Virus record (IMG/VR): IMGVR_UViG_2526164666_000034 | Strand: one strand, 5' to 3' | DNA from: a virus | Lineage: Duplodnaviria; Heunggongvirae; Uroviricota; Caudoviricetes | Length of the DNA stretch: 31,448 nt | Part shown: positions 10,757 to 19,608 of the stretch, in pieces | Numbering within the stretch: position 1 is the first letter of the stretch | Layout of the letters: every line of letters starts with the position of its first letter | Made by a program: the position numbers and the translations under genes | The notes under the pieces: model-generated | The model's database searches: none | Seen by the model: only the letters and a program-made list of their open reading frames with translations | Told to the model about the DNA's origin: nothing

Positions 10757-11515
10757 ATGAGGAACATAATGGCAGGTTTTTTAATATTCCTGTCTTCTGC
10801 TGCTTATGCTGATATCAATCTGTATGGTCCTGGTGGCCCGCATACAGCCTTGCTTGATGCAGCCAAACTTTATGCCGAAAAAACAGGTATTATAGTGAAC
10901 GTTCATTACGGCCCACAGAACAAATGGAATGAAGATGCCAAAAAAAATGCAGATATCTTGTTTGGCGCATCAGAACAATCTGCTCTGGCTATCATTCGGG
11001 ACCATAAAGACAGCTTCAGTGAAAAAGATATTCAGCCTCTTTATCTGCGAAAAAGTATTTTACTGGTAAAGAAAGGTAATCCTAAAAATATCCGGAGTAT
11101 TGACGACCTGACCAGACCTGGGATTGGCGTAATTGTTAATGATGGTGGTGGTACCAGTAATACATCAGGCACTGGCGTCTGGGAAGATATTGCCGGACGT
11201 AAAGGGAATATAGAAACTGTCGCCGCAATCCGAAAAAATATTATTTTATATGCGCCCAATAGCGGAACTGCACGTAAGGCTCTTGAGAATCAGCCTGGAG
11301 CAGATGTCTGGATAACCTGGGCTGACTGGGCAGCCAGTAATCCAGAAATTGGTGATGTCGTGGAAATAGCGCCAGACTACGTGATATGGCGTGATATGAA
11401 CATTACAGTACGTCAGGATGCAAATGATGAAACCCGTCGATTTGCAGAATGGCTACAAACCGATGAAGCGGCGCCTGCATTCAAAAAATATGGCTGGACC
11501 AGGAAAGGCACTTGA
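10757..11515 (+). CDS. Periplasmic solute-binding protein (ModA-like fold), orphan
   Basis: 252-aa ORF with AAGGAG RBS and a signal peptide (MRNIMAGFLIFLSSAAYA|DI); length and C-terminal ..FKKYGWT.K resemble ModA-type binding proteins; no adjacent permease or ATPase; preceded by ~250 bp of very AT-rich DNA. Confidence 0.6.
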   Translation: MRNIMAGFLIFLSSAAYADINLYGPGGPHTALLDAAKLYAEKTGIIVNVHYGPQNKWNEDAKKNADILFGASEQSALAIIRDHKDSFSEKDIQPLYLRKSILLVKKGNPKNIRSIDDLTRPGIGVIVNDGGGTSNTSGTGVWEDIAGRKGNIETVAAIRKNIILYAPNSGTARKALENQPGADVWITWADWAASNPEIGDVVEIAPDYVIWRDMNITVRQDANDETRRFAEWLQTDEAAPAFKKYGWTRKGT

Positions 11516-11657: not shown

Positions 11658-11849
11658 GCGAAAACGGTTTGCTGTAACGGCAGAGTTAAGTAGGATTGCT
11701 GCGGGTGCTTGAGGCTATCTGCCTCGGGCATGAACACCAACGGCAGATAGATAAAAGCCCCACCCGACTATAAATCGAAGTGAGGCCCCTATATGCTCGT
11801 CACATATAGATTGCCTCTTACGGACCGAAAGGTCAAGGAGAAGCAGGCT

Positions 11850-12005
11850 ATGAAGCAGCAAAAGGCGATGTTAATCGCCCTGATCGTCATCTGTTTAACC
11901 GTCATAGTGACGGCACTGGTAACGAGGAAAGACCTCTGCGAGGTACGAATCCGAACCGGCCAGACGGAGGTCGCTGTCTTCACAGCTTACGAACCTGAGG
12001 AGTAA
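11850..12005 (+). CDS. hok: Hok-family type I toxin (HokD/RelF-like)
   Basis: 51-aa protein MKQQKAMLIALIVICLTVIVTALVTRKDLCEVRIRTGQTEVAVFTAYEPEE matches recalled HokD; AAGGAG RBS; in-frame upstream extension from 11793 resembles a mok-like leader; terminator follows. Confidence 0.85.
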   Translation: MKQQKAMLIALIVICLTVIVTALVTRKDLCEVRIRTGQTEVAVFTAYEPEE

Positions 12006-12832: not shown

Positions 12833-13887
12833 GTGCGGGTATTACTTCGACCTGTTCCGGTACCGGAACTTGGGTTGGTGGTCCTTAAACCAGGCCGTGA
12901 ATCCATGCAGGTATTCCATAACCCTCGAGTGCTTGTGGAGCCGGAACCGAAAAGCATGCGCGGTCTGCCGTCCGGCATCGTCCCTGCCGTTCGCCAGCCG
13001 CTGGCGGAGGATAAATCATTACTGCCGTTTTTCAGCAATGAGCGTGTGATTCGTGCTGTTGGTGGCGCTGGTGCACTGTCTGACTGGCTGTTGCGTCATG
13101 TCAAATCCTGCCAGTGGCCTCATGGTGACTATCATCACAGTGAAACCGTTATTCACCGTTATGGTACCGGCGCAATGGTGTTGTGCTGGCACTGCGACAA
13201 CCAGCTGCGTGACCAGACATCCGAATCACTCGAGCAACTTGCTCATCAAAACCTGTCAGCATGGATGATTGACGTCATCGGTCACGCAATAAGCGGTACG
13301 CAGGAGCGTGAATTATCTCTGGCTGAATTATCCTGGTGGGCGGTCCGCAATCAGGTGGCGGACGCGCTACCGGAAGCGGTATTACGTCGTTCGCTGGGGT
13401 TGCGTGCGGAAAAATCCGCTCAATGTACCGTGAAAGCGACATCGTACCGGGAGAGCAGACCGCCACCATCATACTGAAGCAGCGCACAAAAAATCTTGCG
13501 CCGCTGCCTCACGCCCACCAGCAAAACCCGCCACAGGAAAAGACGGTGGTCAGCATTGCCGTTGATCCGGAGTCACCGGCTCAGTATCTCCAGCGCCAGA
13601 AACCACAACGGGAAGAGATGCCTGTATACACGCGCTGGGTAAAAACGCAGAAATGCATGACGTGCGGTAATCAGGCAGATGATCCGCATCACATCATTGG
13701 TCATGGACTGGGAGGGATGGGAACAAAGGCTGATGATTTGTTTGTTATTCCGCTGTGCCGTAAATGCCATAGCGAACTACACGCCGGGGTAAAAGATTTT
13801 GAAGAAAAACACGGCAGCCAGCTGTTGTTGCTGATTCGTTTTTTAATGCACGCGAGAAATTCGGGTGTCCTGAAGTGGAAAGCATGA
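12833..13887 (+). CDS. YdfU-like nin-region protein with a Cys/His zinc-binding motif; frame broken in a 5-base homopolymer
   Basis: ORFs 12833..13477 and 13336..13887 overlap in different frames; one extra base in the run at 13410-13414 yields one ~350-aa ORF, the size of Qin YdfU; C-terminal CMTCG...HH..GHG...C.KCHSELH motif. Confidence 0.5.
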
Positions 13888-14253
13888 ATGACTGAACGGA
13901 TAGAATTTGTTTTGCCTTACCCGCCGACGGTGAATACCTACTGGCGACGTCATGGCAATACGTATTTCATCTCGGAAGCCGGAAAGCGTTATCGCCGTGA
14001 TGTGGCGCTAATTGTTCGCCAGCAGCGGCTGAAATTAAACCTGTCCGGAAGGCTGGTGATAAAGATTATTGCAGAGCCACCGGATAAGCGCCGTCGTGAC
14101 CTGGACAATATCCTGAAAGCACCACTGGATGTGCTGACGCATGCCGGACTTCTCATAGACGACGAGCAGTTTGATGAAATCAATATTGTGCGCGGTCAGC
14201 TCGTTCCTGGTGGGCGGCTGGGGATAAAAATCACAGAACTGGAGTGCGCATGA
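13888..14253 (+). CDS. rusA: RusA Holliday-junction resolvase
   Basis: 121-aa protein; ..PPT.N.YWR.., ..RRRDLDN.., ..GGRLGI.ITE.. motifs match RusA as recalled; start overlaps the upstream stop. Confidence 0.85.
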   Translation: MTERIEFVLPYPPTVNTYWRRHGNTYFISEAGKRYRRDVALIVRQQRLKLNLSGRLVIKIIAEPPDKRRRDLDNILKAPLDVLTHAGLLIDDEQFDEINIVRGQLVPGGRLGIKITELECA

Positions 14254-14408
14254 ATAACCACTATTTACAGTTTGTGCGTGAGCAGCTCATTATCGCCACC
14301 GCTGATTTGAGTGGGGCAACAAAAGGTCAGCTTGAAGCCTGGCAGGAGAATGCCATGTTCGATACAGGGCGTTACAGGCGAAAAAAATCCGGTACCGCGA
14401 TGAAGTGA
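14250..14408 (+). CDS. Small 52-aa ORF translationally coupled to rusA
   Basis: ATGA start/stop overlap with rusA; below the ORF-track size cutoff. An extra base in the 7-base run at 14381-14387 would fuse it in frame to the downstream Q-like ORF. Confidence 0.35.
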   Translation: MNNHYLQFVREQLIIATADLSGATKGQLEAWQENAMFDTGRYRRKKSGTAMK

Positions 14409-14416
14409 CTGGAAAA

Positions 14417-14938
14417 ATGATAACGCGGGATAATCCACCAATCCCGGGAAAGCAATCGCTGGCGAAGGTGACGTCAATTCCTCTGGTCAGTCCGGTTGAG
14501 TTTTCGACATCATCGTGGCGGCGGGCTGTTCTGTCTCTTGAAGAACATCATAAAGCCTGGTTGTTGTGGTGTTACAGCGGGAGTATTTGTTGGGAATATC
14601 AGATCGCGATAACACAGTGGGCGTGGAATGAATTTAATACTCAATCCGGTACCAGAAAAATTGCTGGGAAAACGCAGGAACGCCTGAAAAAATTAATCTG
14701 GCTGGCGGCGCAGGCAGTAAAAGCAGAACTTTTTGGTGGGGAAGGTTATGAATATCAGGAGCTGGCATTACTGGCGGGAGTGACAACTAAAAACTGGTCC
14801 AAAACATTTACTCGTCACTGGGTTGCAATGAAACACATTTTTCACCGACTGGATAGTGAGGCTTTATTATTTGTAATGAGAACACGTTCAAAACAAAAGG
14901 CGGCATTTTCAAAGCAAAGTGTTGCAAAAGTAGATTGA
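14417..14938 (+). CDS. Putative late-gene antiterminator (Q-like)
   Basis: ~173-aa ORF (alternative GTG start at 14405) immediately upstream of a terminator, a late-promoter-like element and the tRNA cluster, which is the canonical Q position; family assignment is by position. Confidence 0.45.
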   Translation: MITRDNPPIPGKQSLAKVTSIPLVSPVEFSTSSWRRAVLSLEEHHKAWLLWCYSGSICWEYQIAITQWAWNEFNTQSGTRKIAGKTQERLKKLIWLAAQAVKAELFGGEGYEYQELALLAGVTTKNWSKTFTRHWVAMKHIFHRLDSEALLFVMRTRSKQKAAFSKQSVAKVD

Positions 14939-15003
14939 AAGGCATATATTTCATGCAAATCTGATATTTTGCCGATTTTGTACGTGATGGCAAAAGCAAA
15001 CAA

Positions 15004-15030
15004 AACCCGCCCACAAGCGGGTTTTGTTGT
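15004..15030 (+). terminator. Rho-independent terminator downstream of the Q-like gene
   Basis: Perfect 7-bp stem AACCCGC/GCGGGTT with a CCACAA loop and T-rich tail. Confidence 0.5.
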
Positions 15031-15095
15031 GCCACTTATCTCGGATAGACATGGTGAATGCGCTGGTGGAGGAGATAAGGGTGATTTTTGTATGC

Positions 15096-15124
15096 TTGCA
15101 ACATTGATTTCGTAACGTTATTAT
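15096..15124 (+). promoter_or_regulatory. Sigma70-like promoter (TTGCAA-17 nt-TATTAT), candidate late promoter
   Basis: Near-consensus -35 and -10 hexamers with a 17-nt spacer, ending ~10 nt before the first tRNA gene. Confidence 0.45.
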
Positions 15125-15133
15125 CCTGCGCCC

Positions 15134-15209
15134 GGCCCTTTAGCTCAGTGGTGAGAGCGAGCGACTCATAATCGCCAGGTCGCTGGTTCAAATCCAGCAA
15201 GGGCCACCA
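15134..15209 (+). tRNA. ileZ: tRNA-Ile (anticodon CAU, ileX/ileZ-like)
   Basis: 76-nt cloverleaf ending GGGCCACCA; closely resembles E. coli ileX as recalled; anticodon loop CTCATAA; encoded CCA. Confidence 0.8.
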
Positions 15210-15210
15210 A

Positions 15211-15286
15211 CCGCCACTAGCCATCAGGAAAGAGCGTCAACCCTTTAAGTTGAGTGTGCGAGGTTCGAGTCCCCGGTGGTGGTCCA
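15211..15286 (+). tRNA. tRNA-like gene, identity uncertain (anticodon loop CCUUUAA, nominal UUU)
   Basis: 76 nt with a 7-bp acceptor stem, perfect 5-bp anticodon stem, TTCGAGT T-loop and CCA end, but a weak D-stem and C at position 33; may be a divergent phage tRNA (Arg slot in Stx phages) or a pseudo-tRNA. Confidence 0.5.
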
Positions 15287-15299
15287 TTATCGGTATTCT

Positions 15300-15373
15300 G
15301 CGTTGTTAGCTCAGCAGGACAGAGCAATTGCCTTCTAAGCAATCGGTCACTGGTTCGACTCCAGTACAACGCG
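15300..15373 (+). tRNA. tRNA-Arg (anticodon UCU)
   Basis: Cloverleaf with acceptor GCGTTGT/ACAACGC, anticodon arm ATTGC-CTTCTAA-GCAAT, T-loop TTCGACT; no encoded CCA. Confidence 0.75.
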
Positions 15374-15388
15374 CTACACTTATTTTCC

Positions 15389-15414
15389 CGGCTCGCTTTT
15401 GCGGGCCTTTTTTG
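15389..15414 (+). terminator. Rho-independent terminator downstream of the tRNA cluster
   Basis: GGCTCGC-TTTT-GCGGGCC hairpin (one G-U pair) followed by a run of six T. Confidence 0.5.
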
Positions 15415-15456
15415 TATCTGCGCCACGCCCGGCGCATACCAACCACAGAGCCTTTC

Positions 15457-15470
15457 GGGGGGGGGGGGGG
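15457..15470. repeat. Run of 14 consecutive G
   Basis: Read directly from the sequence; intergenic, between the tRNA terminator and the TerB-like gene. Confidence 0.9.
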
Positions 15471-15552
15471 AGCTTACGGAGTGGTCAGTGTGACTTTCTC
15501 TGTGGGCAGATCGCTCCCGGGCGTTGGCTCACCCACCCAAAGGAACGTCACG

Positions 15553-15985
15553 ATGTTTGGTATTTTTGGTAAAAAAAGCCCGCAGAGCGGCAACGGAAAT
15601 TAAAAAGTTTGAAAAACGCGATCTGGCACAGGTGGTGATTAACGCCGCCTACCTGGTGGCCTATGCAGATGGTGAATGTGAGGCTTCCTAGAAAGCGAAG
15701 ATCGAACAGGTACTGCGTAATCAGCCTGCGCTGTACGCGTTTACGTCAGAAATTAATGCGATTAGCGCAACCATTATCGGTCAGCTGGATACGAACTTTA
15801 AAACTGGTCGTCGTGCGGCGTTACGTGAGATCGAGGATGTGAAACACGATACGCGTGAAGCGGAAGATGTGCTGGATGTGGCGGTGGCCATTGCGGAGGC
15901 AGACGGCGAAATTGAGCCGGAAGAGCGCAAGGTGCTGGAAGAGATTGCCGGTGTTCTGGGTCTTCGTCTGGAGAATTACCTGTGA
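15553..15985 (+). pseudogene. TerB-like (tellurite-resistance TerB family) gene, disrupted by a frameshift and an in-frame TAG
   Basis: ATG at 15553 with AGGA RBS gives MFGIFGKKSPQSGNGN then a stop; the +1 frame continues ..FEKRDLAQVVINAAYLVAYADGECEAS(TAG at 15689-15691)KAKIEQVL....AIAEADGEIEPEERKVLEEIAGVLGL.., a TerB-like pattern. The 7-base run at 15571-15577 is the likely frameshift site. Confidence 0.5.
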
Positions 15986-16149
15986 CGGTAAAACTGCGCC
16001 TGACTGTGGCTGCACTCCTGCTGTTTCTGGTGGTGATGGTGGATTTCACCAGCAGAATCATGTCGGTGCTGGCGGATGGGGTGCTGGTCTGCGGCATTAT
16101 GGTATTGCTGTGGCCGGTGATAAAAAGAAACAGCCTGCATAATGCTTGA
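15982..16149 (+). CDS. Small hydrophobic protein (55 aa) coupled to the TerB-like gene
   Basis: GTG overlapping the TerB-like TGA (GTGA); translation is largely hydrophobic (..LTVAALLLFLVVMV...VLVCGIMVLLWPV..). Confidence 0.3.
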   Translation: MTVKLRLTVAALLLFLVVMVDFTSRIMSVLADGVLVCGIMVLLWPVIKRNSLHNA

Positions 16150-16349
16150 TTTTTTGTTTGCTGTTTATTAAAAACACTTCTGCATGGTGAATCCCCCTGT
16201 GCGGTGGGGCAATCAGCAAGAAGGAATATGGGGTAATCGCGGATTCAGGTGCTGATACTGAATTCACCGGGAGGCACCCGGCACCATGCTTTGCCACAAA
16301 AGTGTTATTTCTGTTTTTCTCAAACTATCATCGTTATCCCTTTATTTTC

Positions 16350-16376
16350 GGCTGCGCATGGCGCGGCCTTTTTTTT
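16350..16376 (+). terminator. Rho-independent terminator upstream of nanS-p
   Basis: GGCTGCGC-ATG-GCGCGGCC hairpin followed by eight T. Confidence 0.45.
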
Positions 16377-16462: not shown

Positions 16463-18310
16463 ATGTCGATTAAACATTACGATGTTATCAGGGCGGCGTC
16501 GCCGTCAGACCTTGCGGAAAAGCTGACACACAAACTGAAAGAGGGCTGGCAGCCATACGGCGGACCGGTTGCCATTACGCCGTACACACTGATGCAGGCG
16601 GTGGCTATTGAAGGAGAGCCACAGGTCGGCCCTTCATCTGAGCCGGATTGGTACTACGTCATCGTACTGGCCGGGCAGTCCAATGCCATGGCTTACGGTG
16701 AAGGGCTTCCGCTGCCGGATTCTTACGATGCTCCGGATCCGCGCATTAAACAGCTGGCGCGCCGCAGTACAGTTACGCCGGGTGGGGCTGCCTGCAGATA
16801 TAACGATATTATTCCGGCCGACCACTGCCTGCATGATGTGCAGGATATGAGTACGCTGAATCATCCGAAGGCAGACCTGAGCAAAGGGCAGTACGGCTGT
16901 GTCGGCCAGGGGTTACATATTGCCAAAAAACTGCTCCCGTATATCCCGAATAACGCGGGGATCCTGCTGGTACCATGCTGTCGTGGTGGTTCGGCATTTA
17001 CCCAGGGCGCGGAGGGGACATTCAGTGCGGACACGGGGGCCAGCCAGGATTCGGCGCGCTGGGGTGTGGGTAAACCGTTATATCAGGACCTGATTGCGCG
17101 CACCAAAGCTGCATTACAGAAGAACCCGAAAAATGTGTTGCTGGCGGTGTGCTGGATGCAGGGAGAGTTTGACATGAGCGCCGCCACCCACGCACAGCAA
17201 CCTGCGCTGTTTACAGCCATGCTGACACAGTTTCGTGCTGACCTCTCCGTGTTTAACGCGCAGTGCCATGGTGGCAGTGCTGCAGATGTGCCGTGGATTT
17301 GTGGTGACACGACGTATTACTGGAAAAATACCTACGGCACCCAGTACAACACCATTTACGGGGCGTACAAAAACAGGGAGAGTGAGGGCGTTTATTTTGT
17401 GCCCTTCATGACAGACGGTAACGGCGTCAATACCGCCACTAACGCGCCGGCAGAAGATCCGGATATTCCGGCATCAGGATATTACGGTGCGGCATCGAGA
17501 ACGAATGGAAACCAGGTATCATCAAACCGCCCGACACATTTCAGTTCATGGGCGCGCAGGAGCATTATTCCGGATCGTATGGCAACCGCTATTCTGAACG
17601 CAGCCGGGCGCACCTCAGCCTTCATCAGTGGTAAGGCACCGGAAATCAAACCCTCGCCCGGCGGCAACACGCCATCGGGTCCGTCTGCAGATACGTCCGT
17701 TCGCACAATCTCCCTGCTGCCGGCAGCCGGAGAGGCTGCTGCGCAGGGCTGGAGCATTAAGGATGGCGGAATTCAGTTGTCAGATGGTGTATTTAAGATC
17801 ACCAAGCAGAGCAATAAAACCTGGTCCCTGACGCATCCGGTGGATGACGCAATTACCCTGCTGACACAGGGCGGCAGACTGACCTGTAAGTTCCGCCTGT
17901 CAGGCGCACTGACCAACAATCAGTTCGGGCTGGGGATTTATCTGTATACGGATGCTCCCGTTCCTGATGGTGTGGCGATGACGGGTACCGGTAATCCGTT
18001 CCTGATGTCGTACTTCACTCAGACCACTGACGGCAGAGTGAATCTGATGCATCACAGGAAAGCCGGAAACACGAAGCTGGGGGAGTTCGGCGATTACGGT
18101 AACGACTGGCAGACGCTGGAGCTGGTGTTCACCGCCGGCAGTGCCACGGTTACTCCGAAACTGAATGGAGTGGCTGGCCCGGCATTCCAGGTTATAAAAG
18201 ACAGTCTGACACTGGGACTGAATGCGCTGACGGATGTTACAAAAAATGCAGCGTATGGCGTTGAGATAGAAAGTCTGGTGCTGGAGATAAATGCACCGGC
18301 ATCATCATAA
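16463..18310 (+). CDS. nanS: Prophage sialate O-acetylesterase NanS-p (DUF1737 N-terminus plus esterase domain)
   Basis: 615-aa ORF; N-terminus [28 protein letters not shown].. and a GQSN motif block (..[18 protein letters not shown]..) fit the NanS-p proteins encoded between Q/tRNAs and the lysis genes of Stx-type phages. Confidence 0.75.
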
Positions 18311-18396
18311 AAAGTGAGCCAGTCAAATGGAAGGTATCGTTAAACTCACCGGTAGTGTCAGTGGGTCGTCTGAGACGCCTGCATGAGTTATCAGAG

Positions 18397-18426
18397 CCAT
18401 CAGTAGTTAACTGGTGGCTTTTTTAT
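18397..18426 (+). terminator. Terminator-like hairpin between nanS-p and the holin gene
   Basis: CCATCAG-TAGTTAA-CTGGTGG stem-loop (one G-U pair) followed by CTTTTTTATT. Confidence 0.4.
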
Positions 18427-18459
18427 TGTTGTCAGCTTCCGGATAACGGGAGACGGGGT

Positions 18460-18675
18460 ATGTACCAGATGGAAAAAATCACAACAGGTGTGTCATACAC
18501 CACGTCAGCGGTAGGGACGGGATACTGGTTACTGCAACTGCTGGACAAAGTCTCTCCGTCCCAGTGGGTGGCAATAGGTGTACTGGGGAGTCTGCTGTTT
18601 GGCCTGCTGACGTATCTGACTAACCTGTATTTCAAAATCAGGGAGGACCGCCGTAAGACGGCGCGGGGAGACTAA
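18460..18675 (+). CDS. S: Class II holin / pinholin (phage 21 S21 family) with dual-start motif
   Basis: 71-aa protein [16 protein letters not shown]...[45 protein letters not shown].. resembles S21 as recalled; Met1 and Met4 give holin/antiholin starts; GGAG RBS. Confidence 0.85.
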
Positions 18676-18679
18676 AGCG

Positions 18680-19024
18680 ATGAAGAAAAAATACGAACTG
18701 GTTGTTAAAGAGATAAATAATTACCCGGATAAGATTGCTGTTACTGTGGCACTTGAAATTGGCGGGCATCCGTCGTTGTTGTTGCCACATGTGGCGATTA
18801 GTCTTGACCGTACTGAAGGTGCCACGCTGGAGTTTTACGAAGCTGAGGCGAAAAAGCAGGCGAAGCAGTTTTTCATGGATGTTGCTGCCGGGTTATGTGA
18901 AGGGGATGGTCCGTTACCGGAAAAGCGTCCCGTAATTTTAGAGGCGCAGGATGTGTTGATAACCTACAGAGGAAAACTACCGGGAATAATTACGGGTTCT
19001 CTGAAGACTCCACCGCTGGCCTGA
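18680..19024 (+). CDS. Hypothetical 114-aa protein inserted between holin and endolysin
   Basis: ORF with GGGGAG RBS starting 5 nt after the holin stop; no recognisable family; the canonical S-R arrangement has no gene here. Confidence 0.45.
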   Translation: MKKKYELVVKEINNYPDKIAVTVALEIGGHPSLLLPHVAISLDRTEGATLEFYEAEAKKQAKQFFMDVAAGLCEGDGPLPEKRPVILEAQDVLITYRGKLPGIITGSLKTPPLA

Positions 19025-19074
19025 AGACTTAACATATCCAGGGATTTGAAATCGATAAACCCTGATAAATATCC

Positions 19075-19608
19075 ATGAACGCAAAAATCAGATACGGCCT
19101 GTCGGCTGCCGTTCTGGCGCTGATTGCCGCAGGTGCGCCTGCGCCTGAAATCCTCGACCAGTTTCTGGATGAAAAGGAAGGTAACCACACCACAGCATAC
19201 CGTGATGGTGCGGGTATCTGGACCATCTGCCGTGGAGCCACCCGGGTGGATGGTAAGCCTGTTATTCCTGGCATGAAGCTGTCGAAGGAAAAATGCGACC
19301 GGGTTAACGCCATTGAGCGTGATAAGGCGCTGGCATGGGTGGAGAAAAACATCAGAGTGCCACTGACCGAACCCCAGAAAGCGGGGATTGCGTCATTCTG
19401 TCCGTACAACATTGGCCCCGGTAAGTGTTTCCCGTCGACGTTTTACAGACGGATTAATGCAGGAGATCGAAAAGGTGCCTGCGAAGCTATTCGCTGGTGG
19501 ATTAAGGACGGTGGCAGGGACTGCCGTATTCGCTCAAATAACTGTTACGGTCAGGTATCCCGTCGTGACCAGGAGAGCGCGCTGGCGTGCTGGGGAATCG
19601 ACAGATAA
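19075..19608 (+). CDS. R: SAR endolysin (GH24 lysozyme with N-terminal signal-anchor-release domain)
   Basis: 177-aa protein; N-terminal Gly/Ala-rich weak transmembrane segment (GLSAAVLALIAAGA) followed by a catalytic E..D/C..T block (EGNHTTAYRDGAGIWTICRGAT); the expected partner of a pinholin. Confidence 0.85.
   Translation: MNAKIRYGLSAAVLALIAAGAPAPEILDQFLDEKEGNHTTAYRDGAGIWTICRGATRVDGKPVIPGMKLSKEKCDRVNAIERDKALAWVEKNIRVPLTEPQKAGIASFCPYNIGPGKCFPSTFYRRINAGDRKGACEAIRWWIKDGGRDCRIRSNNCYGQVSRRDQESALACWGIDR

Follow-up and report, generated by a model that had tools for sequence, protein, structure and literature searches.

What occupies the toxin position in a phage late region that is laid out like that of a Shiga toxin (Stx)-converting phage, and can the genes found there still be translated? 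We addressed this question for a stretch of 31,448 nt from the IMG/VR virus record IMGVR_UViG_2526164666_000034 (Caudoviricetes), hereafter called the window. An initial annotation, made from the letters alone, had described an interval between the tRNA genes and nanS-p in which a decayed TerB-like gene and a small membrane open reading frame (ORF) stand in place of stx. The pair of genes in this slot is tciA and tciB, already named after genes of phage P1. The gene pair, the kind of slot and the pseudogene allele were all known before, and public annotation flags the allele in many genomes. We are confident that the prophage is a lambdoid, Stx-phage-like element of an Escherichia coli of the enterohaemorrhagic or enteropathogenic (EHEC/EPEC) type, that its late operon has its accessory ('moron') slot in this interval, and that tciA is null and tciB intact.

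The gene pair in the toxin slot

To identify the decayed gene, we used a repaired version of its frame, with one A deleted and the in-frame TAG changed to GAG. The resulting product of 143 aa matched the Pfam family TerB (PF05099) with an E-value of 1.3e-14 and 54.9 bits (cut-off 24.4). It also matched phrog_632 ('tellurite resistance') end to end (143/143 positions, E 1.2e-68) and the TerB structure PDB 2JXU (E 5.7e-7). The family proposed initially was thus borne out by three kinds of reference. NCBIfam returned sub-threshold matches only, among others to the TerB-like part of DjlA, and a search for anti-phage defence genes with PADLOC gave a 13-bit match for TciA and nothing for TciB. In the window, no uninterrupted frame leads from the conserved start (MFG...) to the stop. 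That is, this tciA is a pseudogene of the TerB family and no working member of it.

Two lesions distinguish the gene from intact alleles. The first is a run of seven A residues (A7) where intact alleles have six (A6). It alters only the first eight codons of tciA but puts the conserved ATG out of the TerB frame, so that reading from the ATG yields MFGIFGKKSPQSGNGN and ends at a TAA at 15601-15603. A TTG at 15557 lies in the TerB frame, and RefSeq uses it as the start of A7 alleles. This choice changes the N-terminus from MFGIFGKK to MVFLVKK, and the MFG motif, which is conserved as far as the TciA of phage P1 (52% identity), is lost. The homopolymer frameshift of the initial annotation therefore stood in part: the A7 run and the displaced ATG are real, but RefSeq counts no frameshift. 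The second lesion is the TAG at codon 46, GAG in intact alleles, which encodes a nearly invariant glutamate (E46) of the family. Since RefSeq accommodates A7 through the alternative TTG start, the TAG is the sole unambiguous lesion.

Both lesions recur outside the window. The complete genomes of 2013C-3250 and E2865 are identical to it over 15380-16000 save for one G in a G run, and both carry A7 and TAG. Thus, neither lesion is an artefact, and the initial view that the TAG is genuine, and no product of homopolymer miscalling, held. In many genomes the identical tciA is classed by RefSeq as a pseudogene, with the remark 'internal stop'. A 48-aa ORF with a GTG start at 15839-15985 corresponds to the C-terminal fragment of tciA and matches a family of its own, phrog_3920 (48/48 positions, E 7e-36). 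Fragments of the tciA pseudogene therefore get annotated as proteins in phage genomes.

The second gene, described initially as a coupled hydrophobic ORF of 55 aa, is tciB, and it is intact. It matched DUF3927 (PF13064) with an E-value of 1.7e-16 and 60.4 bits (cut-off 25), and phrog_1470 ('TciB-like') over positions 1-54 of 54. Its start overlaps the stop of tciA by four bases (GTGA, 15982-15985), and a Shine-Dalgarno sequence of its own, GGAG, is located at 15970-15973, 8 nt upstream of the GTG. The hydropathy profile displays two peaks, near residues 5-21 and 27-47. In relatives whose DNA is identical here, the protein is annotated as RefSeq WP_000216649.1. Among the loci of the A7 clade that were examined, tciB is intact in all with one possible exception, and in one O121 TAG allele it has been lost as well, through a premature stop. 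In the window, tciB is the only protein that the cassette can still make. Polymorphism counts for tciB were discarded because alleles with different 3' ends had been mixed.

In the reading that we favour, the cassette is one for a soluble TerB-domain protein and a translationally overlapped, small membrane protein of two segments, as in phage P1. A +1 slippage from A6 to A7 after codon 8 cut the Shine-Dalgarno/ATG start and the MFG N-terminus off the TerB frame. The change from GAG to TAG at codon 46 followed, so that any product started at the TTG ends after 44 residues, while tciB keeps its own Shine-Dalgarno sequence. By homology, TciA and TciB might form a membrane-associated module of the TerB type, for stress or ion sensing, which the phage does not need for growth. 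In P1, tciA, tciB and tciC are nonessential as judged by CRISPR interference (PMC10695390). Our literature searches found no functional study of DUF3927 or of TerB in lambdoid prophages.

Distribution of the nonsense allele and competing readings

In a set of 5426 complete E. coli genomes, DNA resembling tciA turned up at 2731 places, spread over 805 genomes. To count the nonsense allele, we searched for the exact 33-mer centred on the TAG, a search in which no seed is possible if the centre base differs. This 33-mer occurred at 961 places in 576 of the 5426 genomes, with up to 5 places per genome. The TAG allele accounts for ~35% of tciA copies and is present in 72% of tciA-positive genomes, among them O157:H7, O26, O111, O103, O121 and O145 strains. 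The dead allele is thus common and segregates among recombining lambdoid prophages of these groups. One and the same nonsense mutation is present in roughly every third tciA copy from complete E. coli genomes and can serve as a marker for recombination among EHEC prophages.

Allele classes were assigned at 90 loci in which the whole gene was readable (the window, loci collected earlier and 80 IMG/VR loci). A6 was combined with GAG at 34 loci, A7 with GAG at 19 and A7 with TAG at 33, whereas A6 with TAG occurred at three loci only; the remaining locus had A8. As TAG is almost confined to A7 alleles, the A was inserted first and the nonsense mutation arose later on that background. A7 probably crippled tciA, and TAG finished it. 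The alleles with A7 and GAG appear in RefSeq as intact TTG-start proteins of 142 aa (O157:H7 TW14359 and three others), which calls for caution with annotation: these 'intact' TerB proteins of O157:H7 are probably impaired already. Intact tciA alleles are under strong purifying selection (pN/pS, the ratio of non-synonymous to synonymous polymorphism, 0.01-0.06 at pS up to 0.44). Segregating changes amounted to 18 synonymous and 12 non-synonymous in the A7 clade, compared with 36 and 10 among intact alleles.

Some observations weigh against a tciA that was disabled in these two steps. A7 may reduce TciA rather than abolish it, given that RefSeq treats A7 without TAG as intact. The relaxed constraint in the A7 clade has the expected direction but is not significant (Fisher p = 0.12), and recombination blurs it. 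Homopolymer lengths in the window are unreliable unless accurate genomes agree, as they did for the A run. In addition, the name 'tellurite/colicin/cell division' was given by homology alone, and the function it suggests is putative.

If the frameshift, the stop or both were errors of sequencing or assembly, tciA would really be intact. The window does contain probable errors of this kind. Compared with the 99.8%-identical 2013C-3250, it has five 1-base deletions (9643, 11591, 13409, 14380 and 16149), four of them in A or T runs, of which 13409 splits the DUF968 gene and 14380 splits Q. No exact match to 13300-14500, the stretch that holds these two deletions, was found in the 5426 complete genomes, the best being 99.8% identical and 2 bases longer. 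The five deletions look like homopolymer errors of a long-read assembly. However, A7 and TAG are identical in independent complete genomes, the TAG 33-mer recurs at hundreds of places, and homopolymer miscalling does not yield substitutions. The comparison across genomes refutes the artefact for both lesions, and we give it practically no credence. TciA might instead still be made by recoding, if translation began at TTG 15557, or the A run allowed slippage, and the amber codon was then read through or suppressed; this would turn tciA into a low-level or conditional gene. The TTG is in frame, only 4 nt past the ATG, and shares the Shine-Dalgarno sequence of the latter. The TAG allele is also frequent, with no further disabling tciA lesion in the copies read. 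Moreover, a TciA in the database (P0004), a 142-aa TTG-start form that is 99% identical to the repaired product, has W at the stop position and may, as far as the protein tells, be a TAG-to-TGG revertant. Yet an amber suppressor among the phage tRNAs was ruled out, the three tRNA-like genes in the window having the anticodons CAT, TTT (in a degenerate copy) and TCT. Codon 46 encodes a nearly invariant glutamate, and the changes in the A7 clade lean towards non-synonymous ones. With 99-100% identity among the TAG alleles, the absence of further decay is what one would expect of a young allele. We consider recoding very improbable.

Selection for the loss of TciA would also leave a dead gene next to a live one, if full-length TciA were costly or interfered with host functions and TciB alone were useful. 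The prevalence of one nonsense codon across several serogroups and in up to five prophages of a genome would fit, as would the retention of an intact tciB in the A7 clade and of tciB without tciA in phage 434. However, hitch-hiking on late-region modules that are swapped among near-identical lambdoid prophages gives the same pattern without selection, and the O121 lineage lost tciB along with tciA. We consider selected loss unlikely. Another possibility is that the A run (A6/A7/A8) toggles TciA between a strong ATG start and an off state or weak TTG start, with a G tract in the leader as a second hypermutable element and the 'pseudogenes' as off states that leave TciB alone. The tract, G14 in the window, is the only G or C run of at least 9 in its 31 kb, and its exact length in the source strain is uncertain. 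Among A7-type alleles, to which the pure tract is almost confined, its length ranges from 6 to 14, and 32 of the 34 intact A6 alleles have an interrupted, stable GGGGGTG instead. A6, A7 and A8 as well as G6 to G14 were seen among near-identical alleles, all in comparisons between genomes rather than within a strain. Neutral homopolymer instability in a dead gene would account for the slippage-prone A and G tracts equally well, and the TAG renders any switch in the A run irrelevant for the window allele. We regard such a toggle as improbable. A structured leader upstream of tciA received a fold z-score of only -2.2, calculated from a single sequence. We therefore retain the reading of a null tciA beside an intact tciB. 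Its importance beyond annotation is small, and a dead copy brings the roles of TciA and TciB no nearer.

Borders of the slot and the surrounding late region

The slot was delimited by comparison with the Stx2a phage F349. Homology to F349 starts at 15084, the sequence upstream being unrelated, runs at 93.6% identity up to 15424, stops, and is picked up again at 16168. Between these matching flanks F349 carries stx2A and stx2B. Thus, the tciA'-tciB cassette (the prime marks the broken gene) replaces stx2AB exactly. Searching the whole window by tblastn with StxA and StxB of the Stx2a phage revealed no StxA- or StxB-like coding sequence (best E 0.75), in line with the absence of stx noted initially between the tRNAs and nanS-p. 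The Stx-phage-type layout described at the outset was also confirmed, by Pfam, tRNA calls, the flank homology to F349 and an STnc100 gene in both. The order is that of Stx-converting late regions, namely Q, pR'/tR', tRNA module, cargo slot, STnc100, nanS-p, holin and endolysin. Since the slot holds tciA'-tciB and neither stxA nor stxB, which membership among Stx phages calls for, the prophage is not an Stx phage.

The right border is formed by a small RNA (sRNA) gene of the STnc100 family that the initial annotation had overlooked. It scored 100.8 bits (gathering threshold 47, E 4e-21) with the 3' hairpin of the Rfam model unmatched, and a hairpin at 16350-16368 followed by T8 at 16369-16376 is its probable terminator. 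The F349 counterpart scored 158.5 bits. Here the gene begins 4 nt past the small ORF of tciB, whereas in F349 it begins 75 nt past stxB; the point at which F349 homology resumes lies inside it. STnc100 has been reported 75 nt downstream of stx2 and was picked up by reverse transcription PCR in vesicle preparations of Shiga toxin-producing E. coli (PMC12370729). Phages JLK-2012 and Evi, like an O157:H7 prophage, also have a member of the family 3' of tciB. The region folded no better than shuffled sequences (z = -1.3), so that the identification rests on the covariance model. According to a 2026 preprint, TerB, RusA and DUF1627 are usual neighbours of the PasA/PasC sRNAs, and STnc100 is related to PasD; the module therefore sits in a known, recurrent prophage context. 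In relatives, RefSeq lists a spurious minus-strand 'hypothetical protein' pseudogene between the STnc100 Rfam match and the start of nanS-p.

Two conserved RNA modules thus bound the cargo slot of Stx-type late regions: on its left the tRNA genes and the terminator behind them, on its right the STnc100-family sRNA gene. Cargoes are exchanged between exactly these borders: stx2AB, tciAB, or a membrane protein plus tciB. The coordinates of all features are collected in the table.

Table. Positions of the cassette and of neighbouring features in the window
Feature	Position	Strand	Evidence
Late antiterminator gene Q (Q82-like)	14244..14938	+	Pfam PF06323, E 7e-70
Putative late promoter pR' that overlaps the 3' end of Q (TTGCAA, 17-nt spacer, TATATT)	14922..14950	+	Consensus scan
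tR'-like hairpin terminator, 13-pair stem	14999..15028	+ (inferred)	Terminator scan, which lists the hairpin on the minus strand
Sigma-70-like promoter (TTGCAA, 17-nt spacer, TATTAT), part of the tRNA module	15096..15124	+	Consensus scan
ileZ-like tRNA gene, anticodon CAT	15134..15209	+	ARAGORN; Rfam tRNA 72.5 bits; RefSeq tRNA-Ile in relatives
Degenerate argN remnant	15211..15286	+	ARAGORN alone ('Lys ttt')
argO-like tRNA-Arg gene (TCT)	15300..15374	+	ARAGORN; Rfam tRNA 68.1 bits
Intrinsic terminator after the tRNA cluster, hairpin 15390-15407 then TTTTTT	15390..15413	+	Terminator scan; conserved in Stx2 phages
Cassette in the stx2AB position	15425..16167	+	Break in F349 homology
G14 homopolymer in the tciA leader	15457..15470	+	Run count
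tciA pseudogene (TerB family), Shine-Dalgarno AAGGA 15540-15544, ATG 15553, TGA 15983-15985	15553..15985	+	Pfam, PHROG, PDB; RefSeq
A7 run (A6 in intact alleles)	15571..15577	+	Alignments; run count
In-frame TAG (GAG in intact alleles), codon 46	15689..15691	+	Alignments
tciB (DUF3927), 55 aa, GTG start, TGA ending at 16149	15982..16149	+	Pfam PF13064, phrog_1470
STnc100-family sRNA gene, right border of the slot	16153..16376	+	Rfam RF02076 match 16153-16325; terminator scan
nanS-p-type sialate O-acetylesterase gene	16463..18310	+	Pfam SASA, DUF1737, DUF6645
Lysis genes: P21-type holin, DUF1327 ORF, lysozyme-family endolysin with hydrophobic N-terminus	18355..19608	+	Pfam PF04971, PF07041, PF00959

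On the left, the promoter at 15096-15124 had been taken for the late promoter of the phage. It is rather the promoter of the tRNA module, and it is conserved in F349. The likelier pR' lies at 14922-14950, with a terminator ~50-80 nt downstream of it. Read on the plus strand, the hairpin of this terminator is followed by TTTTGTTGT. The isrK/isrJ families of short transcripts gave weak, sub-threshold Rfam matches at 14954-15028. Within the tRNA module, the stretch at 15211-15286 scored below the Rfam gathering threshold, and RefSeq leaves it without annotation in identical relatives. Alignment with argN of Stx2 phages revealed the loss of one base from the D arm and TTT in place of TCG in the anticodon loop; for these reasons we regard it as a dead argN. 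The encoded 3' end of argO is CTA, not CCA.

Upstream of the slot lie genes for DUF968, RusA and a Q82-like Q that is 75% identical to Q of phage 434. In the window the 1-base deletion at 14380, where an A7 stands against A8 in relatives, breaks Q into two ORFs (14244-14408 and 14405-14938). The relatives have Q as a single gene of 690 nt, and the deletion, which is private to the window, is most likely an assembly error. From its position and established lambdoid biology, the cassette would be transcribed from pR' under antitermination by Q, and transcription would pass tR' as well as the terminators of the tRNA cluster and of the sRNA gene on its way to the lysis genes. That the cassette is 'expressed on induction', as first described, is inferred from position in the same way. 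The tRNA promoter would provide expression of the tRNAs in the lysogen and perhaps some read-through. Between nanS-p and the holin gene (18250-18520), no AgvB, AsxR or other Rfam sRNA was detected, even at E <= 1.

Further features lie away from the late region. A sok antitoxin RNA (11703-11852, plus strand, 103.9 bits) adjoins a hok-type toxin gene that is annotated hokD in a relative, and a DicF sRNA is located at 4537-4588 (minus strand, 76.7 bits). RNAs of both kinds are characteristic of lambdoid early regions of the Qin/Rac type. An ORF of 252 aa at 10757-11515 (plus strand) takes the position at which the near-identical 2013C-3250 has its 'AcfC family adhesin Paa' gene, a virulence-associated prophage cargo gene.

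Relation to known tci and TerB systems

The closest relatives are EHEC prophages. Those of 2013C-3250 and E2865 have the same A7 and TAG and the same flanking Q, tRNAs and esterase, and differ in nothing of substance; the O111:H- 11128 prophage is 99.8% identical to the window over 15540-15990. The G run is off by one base in some of these copies, and the private 1-base deletions are confined to the window.

Phage JLK-2012 has the intact, annotated form of the cassette. Its tciA and tciB occupy the same slot between a tRNA cluster and STnc100/nanS-p, share the GTGA overlap and are 92% identical at the nucleotide level over 15553-16088. In contrast to the window, JLK-2012 has A6 and GAG, an intact tciA of 143 aa and the GGGGGTG tract, and it differs in its tRNAs (Asn, Thr, Gly) and in its type of Q. 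Phage P1 is more distant. Its TerB-domain protein, which keeps MFG, has the 52% identity to repaired TciA given above, a DUF3927-type TciB follows, and tRNA genes flank the cassette. However, P1 is a phage-plasmid and not lambdoid, and its cassette, which includes tciC as a third member, lies outside a Q-dependent late slot. Moreover, tciA and tciB abut in P1, whereas they overlap in the window and JLK-2012. In P1 (Asn, Thr ... tciABC, then a tRNA with anticodon CAT) and in lambdoid phages such as JLK-2012, tciAB is flanked by tRNA genes, which suggests that tRNA and tci genes travel jointly as a module.

Two lambdoid phages share the slot but not the cargo. Stx2a_F349 has the same left flank (tRNA promoter, ileZ, argN, argO and terminator) and the same right flank (STnc100, then nanS-p). 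It differs in its Q type and in carrying stx2A and stx2B, with 1374 bp between the flanks versus 743 bp for tciA'-tciB. Phage 434 resembles the window in its Q82-like Q and in what follows it: a terminator, then accessory membrane genes, TciB among them, and a SASA esterase. It has neither the tRNAs nor a TerB gene, and in the equivalent slot tciB stands without tciA behind a different membrane protein of 248 aa. Outside phages, TerB of Klebsiella (PDB 2JXU) belongs to the same domain family as TciA by sequence, with a match over residues 15-137. To our knowledge, the tellurite-resistance label is experimentally founded only for the ter operon of Klebsiella. That TerB is encoded in a terZABCDEF operon, not in a phage moron, and lacks a TciB partner.

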